In this document: one piece after another, positions 10,408 to 55,554 of the stretch
How positions within the stretch are numbered: position 1 is the stretch's first letter
Layout: each line of letters opens with the position of its first letter
Source: a virus
DNA length: 64,000 nt
Virus genome (UHGV): UHGV-0101699
Direction: 5' to 3' (one strand)
Notes under the pieces: model-generated
Told to the model about the DNA's origin: nothing
What the model saw: the letters and a program-made list of their open reading frames with translations, nothing else
The model's database searches: none
Made by a program: the position numbers and the translations under genes

Positions 10408-11184
10408 TTACAGATAAGCTTGAAGCGCCACTTTGCATAGCTCAGAGCGCACGCAATCTTCGGCCGTGAACTCAATGAGCCCTACTTGGCGAGATGGCTG
10501 GAACCGCTGCAGGGCGTCCTCAAGACCAGATTTAACATTACCCGGCAGGTCGCATTGCGTTACATCACCATTCACGATGACTGTTACGTTCTCACCCATC
10601 CGAGTTAGGAACATCTTCATTTGTGACGCCGTCACGTTCTGGGCCTCATCGAGGATGACCACAGCATTTTCGAACGTGCGACCGCGCATATATGCGAAAG
10701 GTGCGATCTCGACTTTGGCCACTTCTGGTTTGAGGCAGTATTCGAGAAATGAAGCGCCCAGGCGCTTCTGGAGCACATCGTAGACGGGACGAAAGAACGG
10801 AGCGAACTTCTCGGCCATATCGCCAGGCAGGAAGCCCAAATCCTCCTCTGCCTGCAGTACGGGGCGCGTAACGATAATTCGCTCTACTTCCTTATCGAGT
10901 AATCGCTGTGCCGCGACTGCCGTCGCCAGGAAGGTTTTACCGCAGCCGGCTTCGCCAGTGGCGAACGTCAGTGCTTTGCTATCAAGGGAGATAAGATAGT
11001 GGGCCTGGGCCTCATTGCGTGCCTCTATGGGGGAAGTGTCACGCTTCGGTTTTGGGGGCAGAGCAGGGGCGGCGGTGGCCAGCTCGTCTACGATAATAGT
11101 GTCGATCTCGTATCCGAGAATACGCGATTTTGACTTAAGCGCCTGGCGAGCTGCACGTCGCGCCTGTTTACGTTTGTTTCCCAT
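10408..11184 (-). CDS. phoH: PhoH-family ATPase
   Basis: Walker A GEAGCGKTFLA, Walker B ILDEAQN; ORF extends to 11280 but terminator hairpin at 11284-11301 and MGNKRKQARR start at 11184 favour shorter form. Confidence 0.8.
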   Translation of the reverse strand: MGNKRKQARRAARQALKSKSRILGYEIDTIIVDELATAAPALPPKPKRDTSPIEARNEAQAHYLISLDSKALTFATGEAGCGKTFLATAVAAQRLLDKEVERIIVTRPVLQAEEDLGFLPGDMAEKFAPFFRPVYDVLQKRLGASFLEYCLKPEVAKVEIAPFAYMRGRTFENAVVILDEAQNVTASQMKMFLTRMGENVTVIVNGDVTQCDLPGNVKSGLEDALQRFQPSRQVGLIEFTAEDCVRSELCKVALQAYL

Positions 11185-11283
11185 ATTGAGTCCTTTCAAG
11201 TGAGTAACCAGACGAACTATACCTAAAAGAGAACGCAAAAGTAAGTAAGTAGTTACATAACAACAAGAGCGCTTATGCAAGAA

Positions 11284-11301
11284 AAGGGGCCGAAGCCCCT
11301 T
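11284..11301. terminator. GC hairpin AAGGGGC-CGAA-GCCCCTT with flanking T-runs on both strands (terminator of tRNA transcript)
   Basis: read directly. Confidence 0.5.
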
Positions 11302-11456
11302 TGGATTTTGCGCTGAAAAAGTGTTGCTAAGATGCTAGAAGCTATGGTTAAAGAACGTCTGCCGTAATGTCTATCACAGCGTTGAGCGGTCTGGCCATGG
11401 TGACAGGCGGAGTCTTTTCGATAAGAAAAACAAAACCAAACCGCTCAACGCTGTGT

Positions 11457-11543
11457 TGGCGGAGGATAATGGAATCGAACCATCATCGCTTTCGCAATGG
11501 GACGGTTTTCAAGACCGCTTGGGCGCCATGCCCTCTATCCTCC
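11457..11543 (-). tRNA. tRNA-Ser (anticodon UGA), type II with long variable arm
   Basis: reverse complement GGAGGAT...GCGGT-CTTGAAA-ACCGT...GATGG-TTCGATT-CCATT-ATCCTCC-G-CCA; acceptor, anticodon and T arms pair; CCA encoded. Confidence 0.65.
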
Positions 11544-11690
11544 GTTCGTTGTGACGCCAGATGCTTATCTTCTGGTTGCTTCAACGAGCTGCAATTCATC
11601 ACAACGGTAAGGGCATTCAGGGAATCAGATCCGTCGCGAACAGCCAAAGAGCGCGCCTTCCTTGCTGTCGTCCAAATACCCTTACCGTTG

Positions 11691-11765
11691 TGGCGATGGT
11701 GGGTGGATTCGAACCACCGACCAGTTGATTAACAGTCAACCGCTCTACCACTGAGCTACACCATC
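11691..11765 (-). tRNA. tRNA-Asn (anticodon GUU)
   Basis: reverse complement GATGGTG-TAGCTCAGTGGTAGAGC-GGTTGACTGTTAATCAAC-TGGTC-GGTGGTTCGAATCCACC-CACCATC-GCCA. Confidence 0.75.
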
Positions 11766-12037
11766 TAAGGTTGACACCGTCAGCCTCTGTCGATTCACGG
11801 ACTTGTGGGGCTGTATCGCCGATTCACCGGTGTCGTTCGCAGCAGTCCTACCGCTTTCTGCCACTTGTGCTTTACGTATTCACCAAACGCTTACAAGCCA
11901 AGATCTTCAAATACTCTCCGAGGGTTGAGGAGGGCTTTCTTTCAGATCTAATTGGATGTATGGAATCATTTAATCGTTGTGGCCACGGGGCAGTGACAAC
12001 AATGGCTATAACCAGAAGGATAATGAATCCGTGACCA

Positions 12038-12130
12038 CAACGTTGAGACCACTGGACGGATTAATGTACTTGGCCCTACATGTCTGCCGGTTCTGCCTCT
12101 GTGATGCAAAAACCAGTGGTCTCAACGTTG
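12038..12130. repeat. 18-bp perfect inverted repeat CAACGTTGAGACCACTGG (12038-12055) / CCAGTGGTCTCAACGTTG (12113-12130), 57-nt spacer, inside ~900-bp non-coding stretch
   Basis: read directly. Confidence 0.8.
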
Positions 12131-12694
12131 CGTGCTGGCTCACCTAACCAGCCGGGTTACGTCGCCATTTTTAACCCAAAACTAAACGACATAAGTAACA
12201 GAAATGACGTAACAGGATAGACGGTCGGGCCTTTGGGAGCCGGGATGTGTTGGACATAAAACCCAACCGCCCATTCTGTTACCTCATCGGTAAGGGCACT
12301 GGTTAACCAGATGCCCTACCTGCGTTTTGCAATCACACTCGCTTAGTGTGTCCCATTTCGGTGACGAGGCTGGAAACTGACCTCGCTGGTGTTTAGCTTT
12401 TTAGGCTACTGCCAGGTACTGATTGTCGTTTGCAGTTATCTTTAAACGTTCAAACAGTCGCGTTTCAACGAAAACAAGCCAATCATAGTTGTATCAATTT
12501 AATAAGTAAATACTTACCTATTATTTCATACGTCAGTTTGATCATTTTTTGATCAGTACTGGCTTCTCATCCTGCGTCCGTTGGATTGTGGCCGTTAAAC
12601 GTTTGACTCTGATCAATCGCACTTTCTTAGATCTGTAGCAGTCACCTGTTCTACGTTGTTAATACATTTTGTCGTCTATGAACGTATAAGTGAT

Positions 12695-13111
12695 TCACAC
12701 AATTTTACTTATCCATCCTTCGATAACATCATAGGCCACATAGCTTTTCGCGATAACAGTTGTCGCTATTACAAAGAACCATTTATGCTTTCCCACAAAT
12801 CTTTTCACCTTTTCATATTTACTCAGTGATCCCTCGTAATACTCAATCAGAGTAATCCACTGCTGAATTTGCTCTTTATAATGATTACAAAGATTTTTAT
12901 TTATTTGGGCTTGCTGCAACGACCGACTCCTAGACAACCAACCACCAGTAACTGGTGGCTTAATTTCAGGCAGTTCAGTATCAAATTTAGTACGTTGTTG
13001 GTTAAGCCGATCAACAACAACACGAAGTTCATCTGCGGTGAGATCATTACGAGCATAAATATCTTTCAGTTGAGCTAGTGTCATATGAAGCACTCTTTTG
13101 GTTGATGACAT
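12695..13111 (-). CDS. hypothetical protein (138 aa) with C-terminal hydrophobic segment
   Basis: ORF; AT-rich. Confidence 0.45.
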   Translation of the reverse strand: MSSTKRVLHMTLAQLKDIYARNDLTADELRVVVDRLNQQRTKFDTELPEIKPPVTGGWLSRSRSLQQAQINKNLCNHYKEQIQQWITLIEYYEGSLSKYEKVKRFVGKHKWFFVIATTVIAKSYVAYDVIEGWISKIV

Positions 13112-13262
13112 TAATTATACCATCTTCAGATATGCTCTGTAGGAGTCGCCCCGTGGAGCTACAGAAATGTAAGTTACGGGCAAACTTCTTAATCAAGTCA
13201 TGACAGATGATGAAGCCAAGGGCGACGCCTCCAAAAAAAGACAATACGATGTATGGAATCAT
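13047..13262 (-). CDS. small membrane protein (71 aa) starting MIPYIV
   Basis: AGGAG SD 9 nt upstream; ATGA overlap with upstream gene; N-terminal TM helix; overlaps 12695..13111 ORF in another frame so one start is probably wrong. Confidence 0.4.
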   Translation of the reverse strand: MIPYIVLSFFGGVALGFIICHDLIKKFARNLHFCSSTGRLLQSISEDGIINVINQKSASYDTSSTERYLCS

Positions 13263-13474
13263 GAGTATTCTCCTGCTTCAATCAGTTGCTCAAGCAGCTC
13301 TCGCCCCTTATTCGTTAACTGGTAGTTCTCTGCCTTTCCTTCCGGTTCGACATTGGCCACCAGGTTCATCTGTTCGAGCTTGGCTCGTGTCTTGGGTTTC
13401 CAGTTAGCGTAGAAACATGACCATTGGCTGATTTCACGCAGGGTTTCCTTCTCTCGCTTACTCAGGACGATCAT
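13259..13474 (-). CDS. hypothetical protein (71 aa)
   Basis: ORF. Confidence 0.45.
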   Translation of the reverse strand: MIVLSKREKETLREISQWSCFYANWKPKTRAKLEQMNLVANVEPEGKAENYQLTNKGRELLEQLIEAGEYS

Positions 13475-13576: not shown

Positions 13577-14899
13577 TCATTCTTTATCTCCGACACGTTC
13601 TTCGGTATCGCGAAGGCATTTGGGCCACTTAAGCCGCGGATGACGCAGACTGCCATCTGGCGTGTACTCGTGAAAATTCACCTTAACAATACGGCCCATG
13701 TACTTGTCCTGGTTATGCCAGATCTCATCGAGGTAGCGATGTTTGATTCCAGAAGCGCGAACCTCGGTTCCATCTTCGAGGCGAATAACGATTTTGCCGA
13801 GCGTATGAGCAAAGCCGGCATCCGGATCTCCGGGTAGAAAGCCGATAATCTCCCCATCAGCTTCGTTTTCATCTTTTAGTTTCCACCAGCTGCGGGTGCG
13901 CTTGAACTCGTATACAGAATCCGGGTCTTTGCCCATCTCTCCTTCTTCGTTATCGTCCAGACGCTTCATAAACCGCTCTACAAAGTCTTCATGGCTATAG
14001 ATGATGTAGAAGGGGTGCATATGAATGTCAGTCGCGTAATCCTGGCCGCGTGTATTTCTGAACCAGGCCACCAACAGTGAAAGGCGCTGTTTCAGCTTCA
14101 TACCGTTCTTCTGGTATTCGACTGTTTTAGCCTGTACGCGCCACTCTGGTAGGAAGAAATCGAAGATATGATAGGTTGCGCCAACCGCCTTCACGTTCTT
14201 CTTGCGTAGCGCTGAGACTGAATTGTTAAAAGAACCTGCAGTACCTTCACCATCGAAAAAGATGTGTTTGTAGCCGGAGAGTTTGCCCAGCTCCAGCATG
14301 GCAGGTTTCAGGTGATCGAGAGATGTAATCGGGTTTCCGGTACGCGACAGAAAGTTAACCTCTTCCTCGTCCACGATCACTTCACAAATAACCCGAAGAC
14401 CATCCAGTTTGAGGCTGCCTATCATTGGCCATCTGGCTTTGGGATTCGCCTTAAATGGGTACTTGTCGCCTTTTTCTTTATAGGCGGTGGACAGCTGCAC
14501 CTCAAACTTTGGGATCGGGTTGGCGAATACCTTATTGCATAGACTTATGCCGACGCCGGCTTTCGGGTCTTTCAGCAGGAACCGGCGAAATACGTCCTGA
14601 CCGTCTGCACACATCGAAGCAACCAAAGACTCGACCGCAGTAATGGCTGCGTTCCCCGTAAGCTCCCGGGCAGCCAGTTTCTCCAGCAGCTCTATCGCTT
14701 TCTGATCACTGGGTACGGACTTGCTAAGTGGATCGGCCACTTTGTATTTCTTCACCCCGAAACGAACAAATGGGTTCAGCATGAGTGACACCATTCTTTG
14801 TTCGAAGTCATCCATACTGGCCAACGCCTCTTTCTTGGCGTTCGTTCCCATTGTTTTAATGGCGTCCAGCTTATGTTTAAGCGCGATCAGCTTCTCCAT
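13577..14899 (-). CDS. lig: ATP-dependent DNA ligase
   Basis: 440 aa; motif I KxDG in WPMIGSLKLDGLRVICEV. Confidence 0.8.
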   Translation of the reverse strand: MEKLIALKHKLDAIKTMGTNAKKEALASMDDFEQRMVSLMLNPFVRFGVKKYKVADPLSKSVPSDQKAIELLEKLAARELTGNAAITAVESLVASMCADGQDVFRRFLLKDPKAGVGISLCNKVFANPIPKFEVQLSTAYKEKGDKYPFKANPKARWPMIGSLKLDGLRVICEVIVDEEEVNFLSRTGNPITSLDHLKPAMLELGKLSGYKHIFFDGEGTAGSFNNSVSALRKKNVKAVGATYHIFDFFLPEWRVQAKTVEYQKNGMKLKQRLSLLVAWFRNTRGQDYATDIHMHPFYIIYSHEDFVERFMKRLDDNEEGEMGKDPDSVYEFKRTRSWWKLKDENEADGEIIGFLPGDPDAGFAHTLGKIVIRLEDGTEVRASGIKHRYLDEIWHNQDKYMGRIVKVNFHEYTPDGSLRHPRLKWPKCLRDTEERVGDKE

Positions 14900-16276: not shown

Positions 16277-16290
16277 TAAGTAGCTACTTA
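16277..16290. promoter_or_regulatory. TAAGTA-family palindrome TAAGTAGCTACTTA
   Basis: perfect 14-bp palindrome in divergent region. Confidence 0.5.
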
Positions 16291-28164: not shown

Positions 28165-31100
28165 TTAAGCCAGAGAGATGGAGCCAGTAGTTCTGTACAT
28201 CGAGACAACCCCTGTAAACCGGAACTGACCGCTATCGCCACGATTCGGCCACTGAATGGTAATCTGGTGACGTTGACCGAAGTTTGACGCCGGGATACGG
28301 ATTGAGAAGATTGATGTTTCAAAGTCCTTGCCATCGTTTCCAGAGTCAAAAGTCCAAACGGTCGTTTCATCAACGCGAATTGTTACGTTCTGACGCCATA
28401 CCTGAACAATCGCAACGGAACCATTGAACACCATACGCCGTTCAAAGGGCATACCGTCAATCGTTGCAATCAGGTAGCGCGTGCCGGATGAGGTATTCCC
28501 GGAAGCTGGCCAGTTTTTAACAACACGGTCGGTCATTGTCACAACGTCACCAACAATTTTATTGGCCTGAACAGTGCCAAGCACAGTGCAGTTCTCGTTA
28601 ATAGTCACGTTATTAAGCACACCAGTATTTGCGTGAACTTCACCACGAATAACTACGTTGTTGAACTGTGAACTACCGTCTTTTCCAATTCTCCAGCCAC
28701 TTGAACCGTTAACGAAATTGTCAGATCGGATTTCACCGCCAATTTTTGCATTGGTGATGGAGCCATCCTTAATCACAGCGGCATTCATGTAGGCAACGCC
28801 ATTTTCCACAACAAATGGTGTGGTCGTGTTTCCGTTAGAGGTATTGATTAAGCCGAAGCGATCAGCCTGAACCAGAAACTGGCTCTGCAAATTTTTGCCA
28901 TCGATACCTAAAGCGATACCAGCAGCATACTTTTTACCGTTGCTGTTGGTTTCCATTTTGACCATCCAGGTACTGTTAACGTTGCCGTTTTCGACAACCG
29001 TTTTCTTCAGCTCCTGCAGCTCGGCTGACTGGCCTCCTACCTGAGCTGTCAAATTCGTCTGCTGCTGAGACAGTGCGCTTATCGTTGTGGCCTGGGTCTG
29101 CTGAGTTGACTTAATTGCCGCCAGAGAGGTGGTGGCGTTATTCAACTCCGTCTGGTTTTTGATGTTTGCCGATGCCTGCGCGTCAATTTGCGACTGCAAG
29201 CTGGTATTCAGCGACGACTGCGTTTTCTCGTTGTTGGTGATGGTCTGCGCCATCTGATCAACCTTCGAAGACGCATCATTCACCTGGGACGTCAAAGAGG
29301 ACAGCTGAGACGCCTGGGATGTCACCTGCCCTTCTACATAGGTAACACGTGAGGTAAGGCTGGTGAGCGCGGATGCGTTCGCATTAGCCGAATCCTGTGC
29401 CTCTTTTGCGTCCGTGATATCGGTGACAACAACGTCATCGATATATAGATCATACCCCGGTGTACCAGTGCCAGTTGTGCCGCGGGTAGATACCCAAAAT
29501 GCGCCGCGAGTGTGGCCAGCGGCTACACGGAGCGTACCGGTGAATTTCTTCCATGCGCCTCTTGCACCCAATGCGGCTTCATTGATAGTGATTGCCGTCG
29601 GCCAGTTATTGTTGTTGGCAGCGTTTTGGGTCTGCAAACCAACGAGCGTTGACCACCCAGAGGATGGCGACTGATCTGCCGGCATCATCGCCCAGAGTTC
29701 AATGCGGAATACCGCATTTTCACGCAGAGCAATCCACTTACCGATGGTTTTATCGCTGTTTCCGCCCTCACCGGCGCTGCGGGAAACACGCAACGACTTC
29801 GTTCCGCTTCGTTTCTGAGAGCTGACGACGACCGCACGCGAGCCGCTGATCTGCTGGTTTTCGGAGTACGTCTCCAGAGAACCATCAAACCACGGGTTGC
29901 TCCCCATCGCCTGAACAGTGCTCAAAGAGTTTTTGAGCGAAGTTGTCTGGCTGCTCTGGGTTTCAATTTCTTTCTCGTTCTGCGTGACGCGGTTCGTTAA
30001 TGCCGTTAACGCAGCTGCATCCGCTTTCTTCGAAACATTTGTGTTTGTGGTCGCAAGGTCATTCTTAAGTTGCGTAACCTGGCTGCCCTGGCTGGTGATG
30101 TCATTCTCTGTCTTGGTCACACGACTATCGAGTTTAGTGATCGCGCTCGAGTTCGCCTGAGTTTCAACAGAGTCGGTCACATCGACGACATAAAAATCAT
30201 CAAAGTACATCGCGCCTGCGGACAAGAAAGCAGTGAACTGAACGTCAGCAACGACATCCTTTGTCGCCTTCCAGGTCCAGGACACTTCCTGCCAGTTCGA
30301 AGTGAACGGGCCATAAGCCTTACTTGCGATTAGACCGTTACCTTCTGCCACACGGAATTTTGTGTTGTCAGTCGACTGAATGGTGGTATTAGGGTCCTGC
30401 TTTGCCCAGATGCCAATTTTGTACGACCGATCCTTTTTGAAGGAGATCTTCTGGCCCACGCCTGCAGAACCACCCGCCGCCAGTTTGGCGGCTTTGGTGC
30501 CAAGATGTGGAACCTGCAGCGTTACCACCGTGGCAATCCCGCTCCAGCCTGTATAGCCCTCCGTACCACGCTCAAAAGACGGGTTTACGATCAGGTTCCC
30601 GGGGATCTGGCTTGCTGCATCCACGCTGGCGTTACTGGACGCAAGGCTGTTTTCCAGTGCCGTTGTCGAGGAGCTCAGGGAGTCAATATTATCCCCCTGG
30701 GTCTTCACTGTGTTCTGGAGCGTGGTAATTGCCGACGCGTTCGCATCAGCCTTCATCATCACACCGCCGGCGGCGCCCAGTCCCATCATTACCCCGTTCA
30801 CAAACTCGACTGAGGTCGAGATGTGGGCGGTGCCGTCGCCACCGGTTGGCGCACGCAGTTCCAGACCATCGCCAGGCTTCATGCCTTTGCGGCCAAGGAG
30901 AATGTAGGCACCACGATACGGTAGAGAGTTGACGACTTCGGATGTGCCACCAAGAGATTCCAGGGCAGACAATACTTTACCTCGGTTGCCAGTTGGCTCA
31001 TCGAATGTCAGGACACAAACGTAAGTCCCACTGGCCAGTGCCTCGATATCAGCCGACATCGTGGCACCATTATTCGCGCTGCCAAAGACATCGTATGTTT

Positions 31101-34100
31101 TGGATGTCGCAATCACCGTTGATCCGTCGCTGTGTTTTGCAAAAGTGACCAGCGCCCAGCTGCGACCAGGGGTAAACAGGTTTTTGCCGCTTTCATCAAA
31201 AACCCCAGGAGTTACGCTGTTGCCATTCCCCCGTGCAGTGACAGTAAACACAGTGCGACGGTTCATCGAGGCCTGCAGGCTGGTAATGCTACTGTTCGCC
31301 GCGGTTAAATCGCCCCCCTGAGATGTCACCGTGTTCCGGAGATCCTGCAATGCAGAAGCATCAGCTTTCTTGGCAATATTGTTCTGAGCTGTCGACAGCC
31401 CGTTCTCCAACGATGTGGTGCGATTTCCGATAGAGCTAATGGAAGTGCCTTGCTGATTCACTTTCGTTGTCAGCGAATCCACAGCCGACGCACTGGCGCT
31501 ATCAGACGGAGACTCGTTCCAGTCGGAAACAACGTTACCTACCTCAAACTTCGGACTGTTGATGTACACCGTCTGGTCTTTGGAGGTATTGCTCTCGATA
31601 CGGCACAGAATCAGGCGCTTGGTGCCCGTGGTAGGTGTCTGTTTCCACTTAACCCAATAGCGGGCCCATGAAGTGGTCAGCGTGAACTGCGCACGACCAT
31701 CAGTGTTGTTACCTTTCGCACCCTGGCTGGTCTCGATAGACGTTGTGGTGTTCGGATTGTAGAAGAACGCCGTCATCGTCTGGCCAGTAACGCCGCCTTT
31801 CGCATAGAAGCTGTAAACGTACTCACCTGCATCGACCGGCGACTCAAGCGTGATTTCCCGCAGATCCTTGTAACCGGAGCCGGCTTTTACAGTTGCGCCA
31901 ATTACCGCATTACCACGATACGTATCGCTGACAACGTTCGACCAGCCGGTCATATCGCCGGAGTTCTTGATCAGGTTTGTACCGCCGACAGAAATTGCAT
32001 CAACCTTGTTGTTCAGATTCGTGACAGAAGAACTCGTTGAGTTAATGTCTTTTTCGGTCTGGGTAACACGGTTGGTCAGTGCCGTCAGAGCATTTGCGTC
32101 CGCTTTTTGAGCAACGTTTGCATTTGTTGTTCTCAAATTGTTCTCAAGATTGGTAGTGCGTGTACCAATACTTAAGATGTTCTCCCCCTGCTGATTTACC
32201 GTAGAGGTCAGCGAATCAACCGCTTTCGCCGTGGCGTCGAGGGAATCCTGGACTTTGGAGGAGTCGGTTACGTTCCGCAGATGCCAGTCAGTCACATACC
32301 AGACGGTGCCGAATGGGCTGGACTGGTTAATTTGCAGGAATGGACGGAAGAAGCCGCGATCGACAATCCCCTGAGTAATTTTGAATCGCCAGGTTACTCG
32401 CTGCCATGTGGCCGACGCCTTGCGGTTGCCGCCGGATGACAGAGGCGCGCCCACGCTGCCGCTTGGCCTTGTTGCGGTTCCGAGATACAGGTTGAAATCA
32501 GCGGAGCCGGTACCACACGCGACGAGAGCAGACATTTCATAGACATCCCCCAATGTCGCCGGAATAGCAGCAAAATTTGGGTGATGGTCGCGAGCCGCAA
32601 TGCGTGCGACATAAGCGTATGGGCAATTGGCTGGCACGCCCTCAGACGAGCTGGAAACCACAGTGAAGCCCATCTGACTAAACTCTGGGTCAAATGTCGG
32701 GTTGCTAATCAAATCGCCACTTGTCGCATTCCCTGCGCGTACAGATGAATTAAGCGCAGTGATACTGCTATTCGCAGAGGATAAGCCCGACTCTGTTTGA
32801 TCGACGCGCCCGGACAACACGCTTAAAGCGCTCTGATCCGCTTTTTTACTGACGTTGTTATTGGTCGTTGCCAGGTCATTTGTCAGTTTGGTGATGCTGT
32901 TACCCTGACTGGTGATCTGGTCACCCTGTTGGGAGACGGTCGAGTCCAGTGTCGAAATCGCATTGGCGTTAGCATCTGCTGTACTTTGCGCATTGTAGGC
33001 ATCAGTTACTTCGGTAATGACCAGGTCATCAATGAGGAATGAGTTTCCCGCCTTAACGCTGCTAACGTTAGGAATAGAAATCCTCACCATTGCCTGCTTA
33101 ATACCGCTCTTCGTTGATTTCAGGTAACCAGAAACCTTCGTCCATTGAGTTGAAGAGAGATCCTTTGCCGCTTTGGTAACTGCCGGCCACTGCCAGGAGT
33201 TGTCCTGATACTGGAGCGACAAACCGATAGAGATCTGTGCATTCTCGGCCATAGCGGTACTCTTGGCATCCCGCTTAACCCAGCATTCCATATAGAAGAC
33301 TGCGTTATCGCGTACCTGGAAACCGCTGAAAATGTGATTATCGCTGTTATCAGTTGCGTTAGCGTTGTAATCATTCGGACGCGTCACACGGATGCACTTA
33401 TTACCGCCATGCGAGTCATCAGTGGTCACGATAACGCGATTATTTGATAGATTGTGGCCAACCGCGTAGCTTTCAAAAGTGCCATCAGGAAGCAGATTAG
33501 CGCCGCGTTTGGATTGCTGGTTCAGAGAGCTGCTGAGCGACGTAATGTTGCTGTTCGCCGCCGTCAGACCGGACTCCGTCTTCTCTACCCGACCTGTCAG
33601 CGTAGTGACTGCCGACTGATCGGCCTTTTTCGCGATGTTTGCGTCAGCGGCTTCGAGGTCATTGGTCAACTTAGTGATGCTGTTGCCCTGGCTGGTGATT
33701 TTGTCACCCTGCTGTGTCACCGTGCTCGACAACGTAGACAGCGCATCGCTATTAGCCTTGATCTTCACCTCATCCGTGATATCAAAGACCTTAAATGTAT
33801 CAACCCAGATTTCGGCATTAGCCGGGTGCGCGTAAAGCTTAAAGTTCTGGCCATCAGCGTTAGAGGCAGTAAGTCCAGTCTCCCAGGTAATGGTCTGCCA
33901 CTCACTGGTTAGTGTGACGTTTTTATCTTCATAATTGCTGTCGGTCTGGCCGATTTTATTCTGGCGCCGGATCAACATGTTCATCGCCCCGGACACGCCC
34001 TTGGCTTTAACCACAACACGATATTTGCGCTGACCATTAAGCGGCAGCGGCTTGTTGTTGTTGGAGAAGATGCCTGGGCTGGTAGTGGTCGTCCGGTTCA

Positions 34101-37100
34101 GCTTAACCCCAGCCTTACCATCACCGAAGTTGCCGAAAGTGACGCCTGCCGGATACTGGGTATCCCACGCAGTTGCACCCTGCAGGAAATCGTAGTTCGG
34201 GATCAGGTTGTCACCGGCGTTTCTGGCAGCGGTCAGGGTGTTATTCAGGTTCGTGATGCTGTTACCCTGGCTGGAAATCGTATCCCCCTGCTTGGAGACC
34301 GTATTTTGCAGCGTAGACAGCGCCTGTGCATCTGCCTTATTCGCCAGATTAGCGTTGGTCTGTTCGAGGCTATTTCGCAGGTCAGTAACGCTCTGTGAGG
34401 TGCTCGTGACGCGATCACCTACGGTGCTGACGTTTGAGGTGACGGCGCTAATGGCATTCGAAAGCGCGTTCATCCCAAGAGCAGAATTCAGCTGGGCTAC
34501 CTTCTCGGACAGTTTAAAACCGAGGTTAATGTAAGCCTGACCAGTCCATTGGTTCACCAGGAACTCAACCGTGCTCCAGCCAGCTTTCAGATCAAAGCTA
34601 ACCGTATTCCAGCTCGCATTACCAAAGGCAACCCTAACACCGTTCACGTACACGGCGCCCGTATCATCAAAAACACGAGAACCTGGTGCCATAGTGATGG
34701 TGGTATCAGCATTGACTTTCACGAAGGCTTTGTAATGCGCGATCACGTAACTGCCGGCGCTCGCAAAGTCCAGTTTTGCCGCGTCAGGAACCTCATCGAT
34801 CGAGATTGGCGCCTTACCGTTGATATCGCTAAAGGTCGGCTCAGTGGTATTGTTCGCCAGTTGTACGTTGTATACGCTACGCACCCACATGTTCTGGCGG
34901 CCGTTAACCATCTGGTTTGACAGCGAAGTGATGCTGTTGGAGTTCGACGTAATGTCTTTTCCCTGCTGGGTCACGGTGCTGTTGAGGGTTGATAACGCAT
35001 TGGACGTCGCATCAATCGCTTTCTCATTGCTCACGTCAACGCAGAAGACGTCATCGAGATACATATAGCCGGAAGCGACACTTGCGCGCAGAGACACAAC
35101 CACGCTGGCGGTTTTGGCTGGCGTATACTCGCCGCTAATAAGTGCCCAGTTAGTCGACAGCCCGGCGCCGGTGATCGGGATATCCTTTAACGGCGTCAGA
35201 TCTGCGTTTCGAAGGCTAATCTTGTTGTTGCCGGCATTATTGATCGCGAAGTCAGCGGATTTGCGAACCCATGCGCCGATACGATAAGTCTTGCCAGCCT
35301 GCAGCTCGACCGTTTGATTGCAGCCTGAGTCACCGCCAGAGGCCAGTTTACCCGCCTGGATGATGTATTTCCCCGATTTGGGGTTTTGGGCCTCCAGCAG
35401 AGTCCAACCAACATACTCCCAACCTTCGAAACCACGTTCAAAAGAGTTGTTTTTGAGCATGTTGCCGATGATCGCTTTCGAGGCATCCGCATCAGCATTG
35501 GCGTTATCCAGCGAGTTTGACAGGCTGGTGATGCTCTGGGACTGGCTGGAGATCTGATTTTCGGCAGCAGTTACGCGGTTTGTCAGATTAGTCACAGCTG
35601 AGGCGTCGGCTTTGTTCTTGATGCTGTTCTGCATCGAAGTGATCTGCTGCCCTTGGCTGGTAATGGTGCCCTCAACAGACGATACCCGAGAGGTCAGAGC
35701 ATTGGTGGCACTGGCGTTCGCCTCAATCGCCAGGGCATCAGTGACGTCAACAAAACCAACATCATCGAAGTACTGGGAACCGGTTTTGAGAGAAGACATG
35801 ATCGATACGTCAACTTTACCGGTCAGCGTCGCCTTCCAGGTATCAGAGACCTCTTTCCATGTTTCATCTTTGGGCAGATTCTCCGGACGGATCGGAATCT
35901 CTTTGAGCAACGTGGCTGCGCCAATACGCAGTTTGTTGTTGCCAGGGCTGCTGATTACCGCATCCGTGGTGCAGCGCACAAAAGAGGACAGCTTGTATGT
36001 CCGCCCTTCGACGACGCTTACAGATTGCGTGATTTGCACCGTGCCAGCGGCGCAAACAAGAATTTTACTACCAGAATGGGGCGCACTCGCCTTGATAATA
36101 CTGGATACGCTGTTCCCTGCAGACCACCCTGCCAGGTCACGCTCAAAGGAGGCGTTAACCAGCAAATTGCTCGGATTGCTTTTGGCAGTATCGGTATCGC
36201 TCTGGATATCGCTCAGCGAGTTATTCAGGGTGGTGATGCTTTCACTCTGGCTGCTAAGGGTTTTATCCTGCTGGGTTACGGTCGACTGCAGACCCGTGAT
36301 CGCCTTGCTATTCGCAGACACACCAGACTCAACACTTCCTACGCGATTGTCCAGCGTAGACAATGCCGCACCTTGTGATTTAAGGGTGTTGCCCTGCTCT
36401 TCAACCTTCTGGGAAATTGTCTGTACTGCACTGGCATCGGCCTTCTGGCCAAGGCTTGTTTGCAACCCGGTAATCTTGCTTGCCTGGGAAGCTTGTTCAG
36501 TGGACAGCGTATGCAGCTCTTCTGCAACAGAGGCTTTGTTTCTGTTGAATTCAGTCTGCAGGGATTCACGCGCACTCGCTTCCGCAGCATCGGCAGTGAT
36601 ACGAGCATTTTTCTCCTGATAGATCAGACCGGAGCGAATGTCGTCCAGATTTCCGCTTTCAGATGAACCGCGGATTTGTGCAGCCAATGTGCTGCGCGCC
36701 TGCGCTTCGGCGGTATCTGCATTCGCACGAGCCTGCTGCTCTTCCTGTAACGCGGCCATGCCTGCGCCCGGCGTCGGTCGACCAACGGCGATCCAGTCGA
36801 ATAACAGGTAATTGTCCGCATCCTGACCCGAAGTGAAATCGAAGCGGAAACGACGAATCGTTGTCGAATCCCGCCACTCAATGTCGTGCAGGGTCAGAAT
36901 CGCAATACCCTTGTCGTCGTATTCCGGCTCATTGATAACCACGGAGCGACCAGCATTCCAGCCAGTTTCATCAGCGCCGATCCAGAACATTCTGGCGTTC
37001 CAGGTTGGGTTGCCAACCTTTTTAACGCGCATCTTAATGAAACGATAAGCATGGGCATCGATCGTCAATCCGTTAGGGGAACGACAGGTTGAGGTCGGAT

Positions 37101-40100
37101 TGTTCGCTTTCAGCCAGCCATCGCTGGTGACGCTCATTGGCGTGTAGCCATTATCATCTTCCGTCCAGCCTTCGGCGTCCTGGTCGAAATACCAGATTTT
37201 CAGAGAGTCAAACTGTTCCCCTGTGCCAGCGGCAATCTGCGAGATCTGTCGCGCGAGGTTTTCGTCACCGGAGGTCACAACCTCAGACAAGCTATCGATA
37301 GAGGTTTTCAGCTCATTCTTCGCGCTCAGCAGTTGGTCGGCCGCTTGCTTGGCTGCATCATTAACATCTGCAATACGGTCATTCGTCTCTTTCTGAATGG
37401 CCGCAGTCAAATCTTTGCTGGTCTGGGACAGCGACGTTGTCAGTGATGACTGCGCTTTCTTAATCTCCTGCGACAGAGCAGCGTCGCCGTCTTTAATCGA
37501 CTGTTTTGCAGCTTCAATTTGGCTGTTTACATTGGAGATGTTGGTATTGATCGTCTGGTTGACCGTATCGATATTGTCGACAATTGTCTGATTGACGGTA
37601 TCAATGTCCTCTTTCAGCGACTGATTGACAGAGTCAACCTGCGCCTTAATTTCGGAGGAGGTTTGCGCAAGGTCGTTTTCAACTTGCTGAATAGACTCGT
37701 TGACTGAGTTCTGAACCTCGCCAATGGCGTTGTCTACCGCCTCCTGAGTGGCTTTGCTGTCGATTTCGTCGAGCAGCTCTTTGCCGAGTTCAGAAGATGT
37801 GATCTTGTCTTTCAGGAAAGACAATACGTCGCGAGTGGTGGCCTCTGTACCGAGGTTCGAGTTCGGCTGGCCTACCATCCCACGTTTGTTTACCGCACGA
37901 ATCCAGTAATACCAGGTCTCGTTGTCACCCAGCCCAGCGTGAGTGAAAGTCGTTGTGGCGGCCTGAGCAATGAGTGTCGCGGTGTCCAGCTTATTTGTTT
38001 TGGACGCATACACGTTGATCTGCGCGAGGTCGACTGAATCAGGGTTAACCCAATTCAATACCACGTTACGATAATCCCCCACCGCGGTCAGTGATGTGGG
38101 CGCCCCTGGCGGCGTCATCGTGCCTTTTACCTGATAGACAGCAGTAATAATCTCGGATTTTTTGCCGCCGAAGGAAACGGAATACAGCTGGAAGTCATAT
38201 CGCCCATTTTCGGCAACATTGACGATTTCATATTGTTCTTCCGTGGCGCGGGCAGATTGCCAGTTGGAGACGTTGCCCTCGTCGGAGCGGCGCCAGCTGA
38301 CCCAGTATTCTGGTGATTTACCTTCCCAGGCAAGCATCAGCTTCACGGACAAGTTGCCCGGACTGGACAGATAGGTGCCTTCTGAGATGACCAGATTGCT
38401 CGGTTTGGAATATGTGGGATCAAGAACCGTCGTATTTTCTGGAACGAGCGCGGCCCCGTTATCAATCGCCTGGTACTTAGATGCATTGTTCTGCACCACC
38501 GTGATATCAAACGACCCCGGGGTTTCACCTTGCGCGATAGCGACAACGCGCGCCCGCATTGGAACCAGGTCTGGTTCGGTGATCGTCCAGACGCCATTCG
38601 CTACTGGTTGATCGGCTGTGGCCAACGCCGTCTTGAAGGTAACTTTAGTGATGTTGTCGCCGGTCTCGTTGATGTCTCGCTCAACGATTTTGCCTTCCTG
38701 ATTGATGATGCGGATGAAGCTACCGCTCTTTTTCAGAGAGACAGGTGCATCGAGGGTGATGCTGTTTTTGGTGAAAGAGACAATGCGACCGGAATTGCGT
38801 TTGCCGGCACGATATTTGTTCTGAATCAGAACGGTTTCGCCCGGCATCAGGAACGAGGCGTCCAGGCCCGCGGTAAAGGTGATCATGTCTGACTCCATAC
38901 GCGCGGTATAGAGCAGCCACAAACCTACACGATGAGCCTGACCACGGCTGGTGCATCCGAACGCAACGGCCTCGGTCTTGCGCTCCCCGTATCGGGCCAT
39001 CGCTTCCTGATCTTCAACATACTCAACGTTCTGCTTATAGCCGTCTTGTTTGTTGTTATAAGTGATCAGCGCTACGGACGGCCGGTCTTTTCGAGCAGAG
39101 CCTTTATAGGTAAACAGGCCATCTTTTACGTTTGCGTTGGTAAACAGCATGACAGGGTCAGACGGGCTGTCCTGCATGATATTCACCATGCCACCAGCCC
39201 AGAAAACCATGCCACGGAAAGCGCCGGCAATATCCTGAATCAGACGATAAGCGTCCTGACGACTGGTGATCTGGGTGTTGATTGCAAAGCGTTTTTCTTT
39301 GCCGCCAAAGCCATCATCAACCTCTTCGTCGCAGTAGCGACCGATCTGATAAAGCTGGCCAAGGTCAATCATTGACTCCGAAACAAATTTGCCGAGGCCA
39401 TAACGAGCATTGGTCAGCAGATCGAACAGAATCCAGGCAGGGTTGGAAGACGACAGAAGCTTAAATGTTCCATCCCAAACGCCGTTATAAGTGTTCGTAT
39501 TTTCATCATAATTCGAAGGCACACGGATTTTGAGGCCACGGATAAGATACGAACGTGACGGCATAGAGCTACCAAACTGCTCAGAGTTAACCTTAAGGCC
39601 AACCAGAACGGAGTTCGGGTAGTTCATTGGGGTATCAACGATCTCACCGATAGAGTCGACCCAGGTATCGTTAAAGAGATACTGATCGTTGCTGTCGGCG
39701 GAGAGACGAAGCACGCGCACTTTATAGGCACGCCCAGGCTTTGGAAGCTGGATTTCGTAACTGCGGTAGTAGACACCAGTCTTTTTCGCAGTCAGCGTCA
39801 CGTCAGAGCTGCTCTCACCTGTAGCAATCACGTCATAGAAAGAGCCATTGCCATTGGCCAGCTGGAACTTAAACTGGACAGAAGTACCGTTTGTGTCCCC
39901 TGTTTTCTTGTCAATGCTACGCAGCGACGGGAACTTCATGATCACTCGGACACGATCAGCGTCGTCGTTATCGATGGCGACCGTAACCGCGTTTGTGGTT
40001 TTCAGCTGTGTGTTAACGGCCTTTGGCGTTTCGACAAAATCGAAACCAGGCATCGGGCTTTGGTCTTGCGAACCATCCCGGAAATCCCAGGTTACACCGG

Positions 40101-42492: not shown

Positions 42493-42516
42493 ATAGATAA
42501 GTACTTACTTATCTAT
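42493..42516. promoter_or_regulatory. TAAGTA-family palindrome ATAGATAAGTA-CT-TACTTATCTAT
   Basis: 11-bp arms, between M stop and L start. Confidence 0.5.
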
Positions 42517-55532: not shown

Positions 55533-55554
55533 GATAGGTAAGTACTTACTTATC
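55533..55554. promoter_or_regulatory. TAAGTA-family palindrome GATAGGTAAGTACTTACTTATC (1 mismatch) overlapping terL stop, 5' of portal RBS
   Basis: read directly. Confidence 0.5.

Follow-up and report, generated by a model that had tools for sequence, protein, structure and literature searches.

A tmRNA-like tag template upstream of two phage tRNAs

The DNA analysed here, 64,000 nucleotides of the virus genome UHGV-0101699 (hereafter the window), comes from an SSU5-like Klebsiella phage-plasmid, and next to a pair of tRNA genes it contains an interval (11766-12694) that lacks any convincing open reading frame (ORF). Comparative sequence analysis shows that the interval belongs to a ~1.2-kb minus-strand RNA operon, whose first predicted product is a structured descendant of the tag-template half of transfer-messenger RNA (tmRNA) with no detectable tRNA-like domain. 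tmRNA is near-universal in bacteria and needs its tRNA-like domain for charging and ribosome entry; its two halves have so far been regarded as functional only in combination. We see an even chance that the phage RNA made from this operon targets or re-templates host trans-translation. The tmRNA-like part comprises the following features:

12401-12433, minus strand: tag frame GCA AAC GAC AAT CAG TAC CTG GCA GTA GCC TAA, encoding ANDNQYLAVA and a stop, identified from ARAGORN, Rfam and homologues
12434-12475, minus strand: 5' leader (~42 nt), with blocks GUUUUCGUUG at 12475-12466 and GCGACUGUUU at 12461-12452
12315-12445, minus strand: core structured module, delimited by a covariance model

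The tag frame is preceded by a resume-like AAAGAUAACU, to be compared with AAAAAUAGUC before the GCA codon of E. coli tmRNA, whose tag is ANDENYALAA with two stop codons. An in-frame stop lies six codons upstream, and the frame has no start codon. At a lowered threshold ARAGORN reports a 'resume consensus' and the ANDNQYLAVA tag at this site, but no credible tRNA-like domain; in the homologous locus of Citrobacter phage Moogle it recognizes the tag at default settings. A scan with Rfam models, one of the checks proposed in the first-pass annotation, aligned tmRNA_permuted (21.7 bits; gathering threshold 47) and alpha_tmRNA (18.2 bits; gathering threshold 50) weakly over the interval, at the resume codon and tag region, and the standard tmRNA model (RF00023) gave no match at E<=10. 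Similarity to E. coli ssrA is short (32/49 nt, E=0.03). The features shared with bacterial tmRNA (SsrA; RF00023) are those of the part of its mRNA-like domain that includes pseudoknots PK2 and PK3, namely a GCA resume codon after an A-rich AUAA-type signal, a 10-codon tag that starts with AND and has an aromatic residue at position 6 (Tyr in ANDENYALAA), a hydrophobic, Ala-rich tag end, a stop codon in a hairpin loop, and H-type pseudoknots directly after it.

The frame is maintained in homologous loci. When IMG/VR and metagenome contigs were searched with a sequence pattern, 239 loci were obtained, 217 of them with a 10-codon frame and a stop. These 217 frames, which form 55 clusters at 90% identity, all run for exactly 10 codons before the stop and share the consensus AN[DE][NDET]x[YF]LAVA, in which the constancy of LAVA is partly circular because the search pattern preset those codons. 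Codons 3, 4 and 6 vary conservatively, encoding D/E (GAC/GAA/GAT), N/D/E/T and Y/F (TAC, TAT, TTC, TTT), respectively, and codon 5 is free. Tags of named relatives are:

SSU5 and pMT1: ANEDTYLAVA
Cyrano: ANEEVYLAVA
DP01, pIS4-A and HK620: ANEEMYLAVA
Vi01: ANDNTFLAVA
JH2 and Moogle: ANDNVFLAVA
SUSP1: ANDNAFLAVA

Decayed copies occur on plasmids. On Salmonella plasmid AnCo3, one nucleotide is missing from the tag frame, and the copy on the K. pneumoniae AR_0152 plasmid has a stop at codon 5 (CAG>TAG), has lost the hairpin that corresponds to 12038-12130, and is followed by a truncated tRNA-Asn.

Covariation supports a pseudoknotted core

The predicted core begins with a hairpin resembling helix 5 of tmRNA (CUGG 12415-12412 / CCAG 12389-12386), which holds the stop codon in its loop. 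It is followed by pseudoknot a, with stem S1 at 12385-12381/12369-12365 and stem S2 formed by UUCC 12375-12372 and GGGA 12354-12351, and by the stem of pseudoknot b (CACAC 12350-12346 / GUGUG 12338-12334). A covariance model built from the non-window (non-SSU5) lineages alone recovered the window copy as its sole match in the window (78.7 bits, E=1.7e-15, the E-values being rough because calibration was shortened). Among 23 non-SSU5 sequences, 91% of the cells in the alignment are paired, as compared to 35-41% when the pairing partners are slid, and 38 cells have changed on both sides, as compared to 11.2+-3.4 in shuffles. For 43 distinct sequences, the corresponding values are 96.1% versus 25-40% and 45 versus 13.7+-3.3; this alignment leans towards the nested stems because it was fitted to those of the covariance model, and the second stems of the pseudoknots were assessed on a MAFFT alignment only. 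Among the non-SSU5 sequences, compensatory alternation is clean in both stems of pseudoknot a and in stem 1 of pseudoknot b, and both pseudoknot stems covary within family B, the branch that includes DP01, Vi01 and HK620. Compensatory changes in four predicted helices show that selection has acted on the structure.

A proposed antisense match of the leader to host tmRNA

Only two blocks of the leader, GUUUUCG(U) and GCGAC, are conserved across all lineages. They are complementary to CGAAAAC (tag codons 3-5) and GUC-GC (positions -3 to +2 of the resume codon) of E. coli tmRNA, respectively. In the window, 12475-12466 can pair with C95-C104 of tmRNA (tag codons 2-5) and 12461-12452 with A82-C91, a segment that includes the resume codon and the frame-setting residue A86. 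The complementarity was judged by a local alignment of pairing scores against 1020 decoys and by duplex energy against 150 decoys, the former, stricter measure having been added because long, loopy duplexes inflate the energy background. The best antisense site of every lineage's leader extends from tmRNA nt 57, 81 or 82 to nt 104 or 106. Decoys that reached the observed pairing score were counted as follows:

DP01 (family B): 0/1020
L101 (family B): 0/1020
Vi01 (family B): 0/1020
HK620 (family B): 7/1020
JH2 (Felix O1-like): 3/1020
Moogle (Felix O1-like): 20/1020
Window, SSU5 and Cyrano (family A): 117-126/1020
L045 (divergent family-A branch, tag ANDTQYLAVA): 376/1020

The duplex energies of family B range from -41 to -47 kcal/mol, and none of the 150 decoys was as low. 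The leaders pair better with host tmRNA than with their own tag region, where the match is poorer because the phage resume context is AUAACU-GCA or AUAAAU-GCA and not AUAGUC-GCA; intramolecular pairing of leader and tag was accordingly rejected for its lower score. The 5' end of the RNA is predicted to be set by its own promoter (window, DP01 and SUSP1) or, in lambdoid copies such as that of HK620, by the hairpin that precedes it, at the hairpin's base, and with both types of start the conserved (A/U)GUUUUCG lies within a few bases. Taken together, these data suggest an antisense match between the conserved leader and nt ~82-104 of host tmRNA, for which the statistical case is strong in two lineages but weak, and only suggestive, in the lineage of the window.

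Searches for a tRNA-like domain

In the 64-kb window, ARAGORN detects only two ordinary tRNAs and no tmRNA. A tRNA-like domain (an acceptor stem with G3-U70, a T-arm and CCA) was searched for in the 217 copies, and a single copy yielded an ARAGORN tmRNA call. That call, like the published 'ssrA' of Moogle (PMC4319497), spans 749 nt and overlaps three real tRNAs, so that the assignment of a tRNA-like domain in Moogle is not credible; the occasional ARAGORN 'ssrA' calls in these phages are not real tmRNA genes. The conserved 5' GUUUUCG has no complementary 3' partner in the module copies. Two candidate domains were rejected. A standard acceptor stem starting from GUUUUCG found no CGRRRRC partner at a consistent position. 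A downstream domain built on minihelix-like stems, namely the UGUGGUG...CACCACA helix of lambdoid copies and 11975-12042 of the window, has ACAC, ACAA or ACGA tails far more often than CCA, and no G3-U70; a helix with a consistent CCA end was not found. At the level of other known RNAs, the large phage RNAs that occur near tRNAs (GOLLD, ROOL) and ribozymes gave no Rfam match at E<=1, and none at E<=10 over the interval itself.

Phages of other types carry tRNA-like sequences near the module. In Felix O1-like phages (L008 ~880-960, L010 ~945-1010 and L011 ~1440-1510) there is an unannotated, hairpin-closed, permuted tRNA-like element, in which the T-arm and the 3' strand of the acceptor are followed by a linker of 2-4 nt (GCCA in Moogle), the 5' strand of the acceptor and the D-arm. 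Its acceptor covaries between phages and lacks G3-U70, and three tRNAs separate the element from the tag, which follows ~600 nt downstream. No counterpart was detected in the window, at the HK620 locus, or in the 73 copies without a nearby tRNA; in the window, the place directly upstream, where an acceptor piece would be expected, is taken by a promoter and then a protein gene. In Vi01, the module lies in a 3.3-kb stretch without annotated genes (L004 1-3372). Default ARAGORN finds three tRNAs there, and at a lowered threshold it adds two weak tRNA-like sequences, ~185 nt upstream and ~340 nt downstream of the tag, one of which has a 4-nt anticodon. In HK620 (L007 1290-1895), as in L145 and L184, the module occupies the late-operon leader after a tR'-like terminator, between two CAGGTAAGAGCA-arm hairpins. 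The hairpin loops of such lambdoid or P22-like copies include some T-arm-like pieces; L184 has a T-arm, the 3' strand of an acceptor and CCA, all without an ARAGORN call.

Layout of the RNA operon

The first-pass annotation had placed the gene-free stretch downstream of the tRNAs. The reverse is the case, because both tRNAs are on the minus strand and the interval therefore lies upstream of them in the direction of transcription. In that direction, the features that accompany the tmRNA-like RNA are:

12510-12505 and 12487-12482, minus strand: promoter, -35 TTTACT and -10 TATGAT, within the region of the palindrome TAAGTAAATACTTA (12503-12516)
12289-12320, minus strand: hairpin GGUAGGGCAUCUGG-UUAA-CCAGUGCCCUUACC, a palindrome (fold z-score only -2.9)
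12134-12288, minus strand: SSU5-lineage-specific domain, kept in all SSU5-like relatives and pMT1
12038-12130, minus strand: long hairpin formed by the 18-bp perfect repeat (z -6.0)
11975-12042, minus strand: hairpin UGUGGUCACGG...CCGUGGCCACA (z -4.7), which overlaps the 3' arm of the 12038-12130 hairpin
11691-11765, minus strand: tRNA-Asn (GUU), from ARAGORN, with an Rfam tRNA score of 77.5 bits
11600-11692, minus strand: long hairpin of the 14-bp repeat, with arms CACAACGGUAAGGGUAUU and AAUGCCCUUACCGUUGUG (z -5.2)
11457-11543, minus strand: tRNA-Ser (UGA), from ARAGORN
11375-11455, minus strand: long hairpin, one base past the CCA of tRNA-Ser (z -10.2)
11279-11299, minus strand: intrinsic terminator GGGGC-UUCG-GCCCC followed by UUUUCUU (-16.1 kcal/mol, z -3.5)

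We show, by sequence and structure prediction, that these elements make up a putative minus-strand operon of ~1.2 kb, in which the promoter is followed by the tmRNA-like RNA, hairpins, tRNA-Asn, a hairpin, tRNA-Ser, a hairpin and the terminator. The promoter is the sole sigma-70-like site detected in 11000-13400, with a start site predicted at about 12476-12474. TAAGTATTTACTTA and the -10 element are kept across SSU5-like relatives, and DP01 and SUSP1 have TTGACA-N17-TAnnnT promoters at an equal distance from the conserved GUUUUCG. The terminator was identified from its sequence and fold and is absent from the list of a consensus terminator scan.

The TAAGTA-family site that had been noticed in the stretch is real, being TAAGTAAATACTTA at 12503-12516. 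Throughout the window, the TAAGTA-NN-TACTTA palindrome has 18 matches at ~12 loci (3474-61065), where 0.03 would be expected. Examples are the loci at 11242-11259, 16277-16290, 42498-42511 and 55535-55552. The sites that were compared with the ORF list lie just upstream of a minus-strand gene block. The palindrome resembles a promoter or operator motif that belongs to the phage-plasmid itself, and its copy at 12503-12516 would drive the RNA operon. Further upstream, TGATCAAAAAATGATCA at 12545-12562 is an inverted repeat surrounding an A-run; its TGATCAAAAAA half is kept in all SSU5-like relatives, ~40 nt upstream of the -35 element, and the repeat could be an operator or an UP-like element.

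Both inverted repeats described in the first-pass annotation exist. The 18-bp repeat (12038-12055 / 12113-12130) is 100% complementary across a 57-nt spacer, and the 14-nt repeat, CACAACGGTAAGGG, can be extended to 18 nt at 94% (11600-11617 / 11675-11692), also with a 57-nt spacer. To these we add three hairpins, at 11375-11394 / 11436-11455 (20 nt, 95%), at 11975-11988 / 12029-12042, and at the palindrome 12289-12320. When folded against shuffled sequences, the three long hairpins and 11975-12042 have z-scores from -4.7 to -10.2. Common to the arms is the motif CACAACGKTRAG, which occurs eight times in the 64-kb window against ~1 expected, six of the eight copies falling within 11375-12132.

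Base pairing in these hairpins is preserved in relatives. The stem of 12038-12130 occurs in 16 distinct variants that stay paired through compensatory changes (GAGAC/GUCUC, GAGAU/AUCUC and GAGGC/GCCUC), and its loop varies in size and sequence among relatives, measuring 52 to 78 nt beyond a fixed 19-nt arm. Three pairs of the 12289-12320 hairpin switch between G-C and A-U among 70 family-A sequences, and its arms belong to the same family as those of the hairpin that follows tRNA-Asn. The stem of 11975-12042 covaries as well (UGUGAAA/UUUCACA in SSU5); it resembles a minihelix without a 3' CCA, and the stem is followed by ACGA, ACAU or ACAC and rarely by CCA. The 11600-11692 hairpin begins at the CCA end of tRNA-Asn and is missing in Cyrano, where tRNA-Thr takes its position. 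The arm type of 11375-11455 also follows the last tRNA in SSU5 and Cyrano. Within the SSU5-lineage-specific domain, helices at 12288-12262/12229-12203 and 12194-12185/12166-12157 and a hairpin (GCUGG 12152-12148 / CCAGC 12138-12134) are maintained with G-U/G-C exchanges and some double changes. A global consensus fold of the SSU5-type RNA (RNAalifold) was rejected, its long-range closures being in conflict with the covarying pseudoknots, and only locally supported helices were therefore retained.

Stems of 18-20 bp that adjoin the CCA ends of tRNAs constitute the structural part of RNase III-type processing hairpins, and in lambdoid copies, that of HK620 among them, similar hairpins bracket the module. 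Near-perfect stems of this length at RNA ends, with stems kept and loops variable, are also found in known RNase III hairpins (the stems of rRNA operons and the R sites of phage T7) and in tRNA 3' external spacers. Generic RNase III sites, however, do not conserve their arm sequences, whereas here the CACAAC...GUUGUG base is kept across unrelated phages. The long CACAAC...GUUGUG hairpins that flank each functional RNA most likely serve in processing, for example by RNase III, or in protecting the ends. A role in defining ends is supported by the convergence of own-promoter and upstream-hairpin copies on the same 5' motif.

Neighbouring genes and coding content of the interval

The operon is surrounded by protein genes on the same strand, taken from the ORF list:

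13577-14899, minus strand: ligase gene
12695-13111, minus strand: ORF of 138 aa
10408-11280, minus strand: phoH

The earlier view that the stretch lacks a convincing ORF holds, as all ORFs of >=40 aa in 11766-12694 have stops or partial coverage in relatives, and no protein frame conserved across relatives was found in the interval. The adjacent ligase gene served as a control and is 83-96% identical and stop-free in the relatives. All SSU5-like relatives retain a gap of ~750 bp without a conserved gene upstream of tRNA-Asn; its annotations are stray short ORFs that overlap or abut the gap and vary by record. The tmRNA-like module accounts for this recurrent unannotated gap.

Over the interval, the window shares 100% identity with plasmid NZ_CP075317.1 and 98.5% with Klebsiella phage vB_Kpn_1825-KPC53. 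Homology with pJN2-26, a very close relative, ends at 12604, and in place of the 138-aa ORF, pJN2-26, SSU5 and Cyrano have an unrelated gene of ~100 aa ('C-type natriuretic protein'). The region 12605-13111 is thus a swappable cassette immediately upstream of the RNA promoter. Elsewhere in the window, a single minus-strand ORF of 4058 aa occupies 28165-40341.

Spread among phages and plasmids

The module is carried by SSU5-like elements (SSU5, Cyrano, pJN2-26, many plasmids of Enterobacter, Salmonella and E. coli, and pMT1 of Y. pestis), and its ~100-nt core (12343-12443 in the window) matches ~400 phage records of very different kinds. Among them are Felix O1-like phages, Vi01-like phages (Kuttervirus), HK620, ~46-kb Klebsiella siphophages and Aeromonas phage pIS4-A. 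Intact copies, which have their own promoters, make up 55 or more sequence clusters and come from five or more types of phage that are unrelated to one another. Outside the SSU5-like group, the module is located within or just upstream of a same-strand tRNA cluster; in HK620 it is in the late-operon leader, between pR'/qut and tQ, and 73 of the 217 copies have no tRNA within 1.5-1.8 kb. The copy on Y. pestis pMT (L031, NZ_CP045150.1, 1501-1913) extends from the promoter through the first long hairpin and has lost the tRNAs. On pMT1, the module lies ~100 bp past the end of caf1R, the regulator gene of the F1 capsule.

Proposed mechanism and alternative explanations

The explanation that we put at even chances, in which the phage RNA targets or re-templates host trans-translation, would operate as follows. 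By annealing to the part of host tmRNA that runs from the linker upstream of the resume codon, through that codon, into the start of the tag, the leader would mask the template of the host tag. On the side of pseudoknot 1 (PK1), where the host linker begins, the phage RNA would leave the duplex with its own linker and resume codon, so that its tag may stand in for that of the host (a 'template swap'), with host tmRNA supplying alanine charging and SmpB binding. The parts of this scheme that we infer are the pairing with host tmRNA, the reading of the tag by ribosomes and what the hairpins do. Since the tag is conserved in the manner of a peptide, translation, and hence a swap, is favoured over a pure decoy. 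In its most specific form, which we consider unlikely, the RNA would be a 'hijacker' that anneals through its leader and substitutes its own linker, resume codon and tag; stalled ribosomes would continue to be rescued by the host tmRNA-SmpB complex, and the rescued chains would end in (A)AN[DE]xx[YF]LAVA rather than (A)ANDENYALAA. In ssrA tags, the N-terminal residues bind SspB and the C-terminal determinant is that for ClpX. If the hijacker form were true, the SspB-binding residues would be kept and the ClpX determinant altered, which would change the fate of tagged proteins, and trans-translation would proceed on a template supplied in trans, a mechanism that we know of in no system.

Several points count against an RNA that acts on trans-translation through its leader and tag. 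In the lineage of the window, the complementarity between leader and tmRNA amounts to only 10+10 bp around a 4x3 internal loop, and the window's leader is not significant alone (120/1020 decoys by score, 13/150 by energy). The antisense target was E. coli ssrA (363 nt), used as a stand-in for Klebsiella tmRNA, and the agreement of lineages on the target site is not independent evidence because the lineages are homologous. The Salmonella tag, presumably ANDETYALAA, would place a mismatch in the GUUUUCG helix, and Salmonella phages still keep GUUUUCG. The search pattern fixed codons 1-2, 7-9 and most of 3 and 10, the nucleotides that encode LAVA are also part of a hairpin, and in two plasmid copies the tag is broken by a frameshift or a nonsense codon. 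The Rfam scores of the module are far under the gathering thresholds, and its own covariance model gives no match on E. coli ssrA. The published pMT1 small RNAs (sRNAs) sR082 and sR083 map away from the module. Finally, we know of no precedent for a ribosome that resumes on a template annealed in trans to tmRNA, which, together with the weak pairing in the window's lineage, calls for caution.

Two alternatives retain a link to tmRNA function. The RNA may be an untranslated decoy or sponge, which mimics the mRNA-like and pseudoknot region of tmRNA and, whether or not it also pairs in antisense, titrates tmRNA, SmpB, S1 or RNase R. Or it may absorb a host nuclease directed at tmRNA during infection, in a way comparable to phage tRNA arrays, which make up for tRNAs that defence nucleases have cleaved. 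The missing tRNA-like domain, the location inside same-strand phage tRNA clusters, the complementarity to host tmRNA and the persistence of copies with a broken tag frame would all fit a decoy, and the tRNA-like-domain RNA of mycobacteriophage DS6A has already been proposed to inhibit tmRNA by titrating SmpB (PMC4131195; PMC11915505). However, unrelated phages keep the exact length and the stop of the tag frame and alter its codons 3, 4 and 6 only conservatively, which a pure decoy would not require, and the broken-tag copies are in visibly decaying loci (that of K. pneumoniae AR_0152 also being minus the hairpin and part of tRNA-Asn), so that we regard it as rather unlikely. Quite unlikely, in our judgement, is that the module is the coding piece of a genuine multi-piece phage tmRNA of the permuted type, with an acceptor piece that is elsewhere or too divergent, the pieces assembling by base pairing as in the alpha-proteobacterial type. 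The permuted element of Felix O1-like phages, with its covarying acceptor and encoded GCCA in Moogle, speaks for such a model, as do the ARAGORN permuted tmRNA call at that locus, the weak tRNA-like sequences on either side of the Vi01 tag, the permuted models as best Rfam matches, and a peptide-like tag conservation that implies translation. Yet the Felix O1 element lacks G3-U70 and is separated from the tag by three real tRNAs. The window has a promoter and then a protein gene directly upstream and, according to ARAGORN, just two ordinary tRNAs in 64 kb; the HK620 locus as fetched gives no tRNA or tRNA-like call, 73/217 copies have no tRNA within 1.5-1.8 kb, and the conserved 5' end has no complement.

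A functionless relic, in which a captured host ssrA fragment was spread by recombination among tRNA clusters and the hairpins are ordinary processing or terminator structures of tRNA operons, would be in keeping with the use of ssrA as a common phage integration site (PMC11915505), with the short similarity to E. coli ssrA and with the decay of some copies. It is very unlikely given that attachment sites use the 3' end of ssrA and not its tag region, that intact copies with their own promoters occur in so many clusters and unrelated phage types, that four helices show compensatory changes, and that the tag is consistently unlike that of E. coli (LAVA, not ALAA). The first-pass annotation had offered a replication origin, a partition or incompatibility site, or structured non-coding RNAs, and only the last of these is borne out: stems stay paired through compensatory changes, a conserved promoter and a terminator lie on the tRNA strand, and the module recurs in unrelated phages, which have nothing but the tRNA-cluster context in common. 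That the inverted repeats act as DNA, as an origin or as a partition or incompatibility site, is exceedingly improbable. In its favour, cruciform extrusion or the binding of dimeric proteins is conceivable for long perfect palindromes, and two hairpins have at their base CAACGTTG, a palindrome in its own right. Cumulative GC skew, however, runs monotonically across 8-20 kb without a turning point at the interval, which holds no iterons or clustered direct repeats but only short families of two or three copies each; lytic phages that replicate by quite different systems have the hairpins alongside tRNAs and the tmRNA-like module, and the loops of the hairpins vary freely while the stems co-vary. 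The neighbouring genes (phoH, the 138-aa ORF and the ligase) include no adjacent rep or par gene, and related plasmids, as distinct from this window, are typed IncFIB or rep_cluster_488.

Relation to known systems and significance

Relative to bacterial tmRNA, the module has no acceptor stem, T-arm, 3' CCA or PK1, has a leader of only ~42 nt, and ends its tag in LAVA instead of ALAA, with Rfam scores well below gathering. It also has an extra 5' segment antisense to host tmRNA and sits in a tRNA operon with its own promoter. Its best, though weak, Rfam matches are to the two-piece permuted tmRNAs of alpha- and beta-proteobacteria and cyanobacteria (RF01849, RF04321), in which a coding piece without the 3' tRNA-like half is normal and the alpha-type tag start, AUAAUUGCAAACGACAAC, is very similar. 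In true permuted genes, however, one transcript carries the acceptor piece immediately ahead of the coding piece, which starts with the 5' strand of the acceptor, whereas the module has a promoter or hairpin directly upstream and no partner sequence. Phage-encoded tmRNA derivatives are known from the Bxz1 group of mycobacteriophages and from DS6A, which carries half a tmRNA (the tRNA-like domain only) that presumably interferes with the host system (PMC4131195). The mycobacteriophage forms retain the tRNA-like half, alone or in a complete tmRNA; the module retains the opposite half.

The one published trace of the family is a single sentence that calls the 'ssrA' of Citrobacter phage Moogle a tmRNA gene (PMC4319497). 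It is the same element (tag ANDNVFLAVA with two stops), and the family, its structure and its antisense feature are not described there. In the portions of the tmRNA censuses that were available (PMC4131195, PMC11915505), only mycobacteriophages and Bacillus phage G are named among phages, and the accessible part of the 2025 update counts 79 phage sequences without naming the phages discussed here. A literature search found none of the six family tag peptides, nor any tmRNA-like element in these phages beyond the Moogle sentence. The family thus appears to be undescribed, although it is found in hundreds of enterobacterial phages. What is new is a predicted tmRNA-derived RNA with no tRNA-like domain and an antisense leader, and there is a real chance that its mechanism is new as well.

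In well-studied phages (Felix O1-like, Vi01-like and HK620/P22-like phages and Klebsiella siphophages), in SSU5-like plasmids of Salmonella, Klebsiella and E. coli, and in pMT1, the tag-template half of tmRNA stands alone, conserved and structured. This suggests an undescribed way in which phages manipulate ribosome rescue or protein tagging, and it provides three concrete handles: the RNA itself, which is defined, the site on tmRNA that it is predicted to target, resume codon and A86 included, and the peptide tag predicted from its frame. It may also bear on the reason why phage-plasmids and lytic phages carry tRNA clusters.

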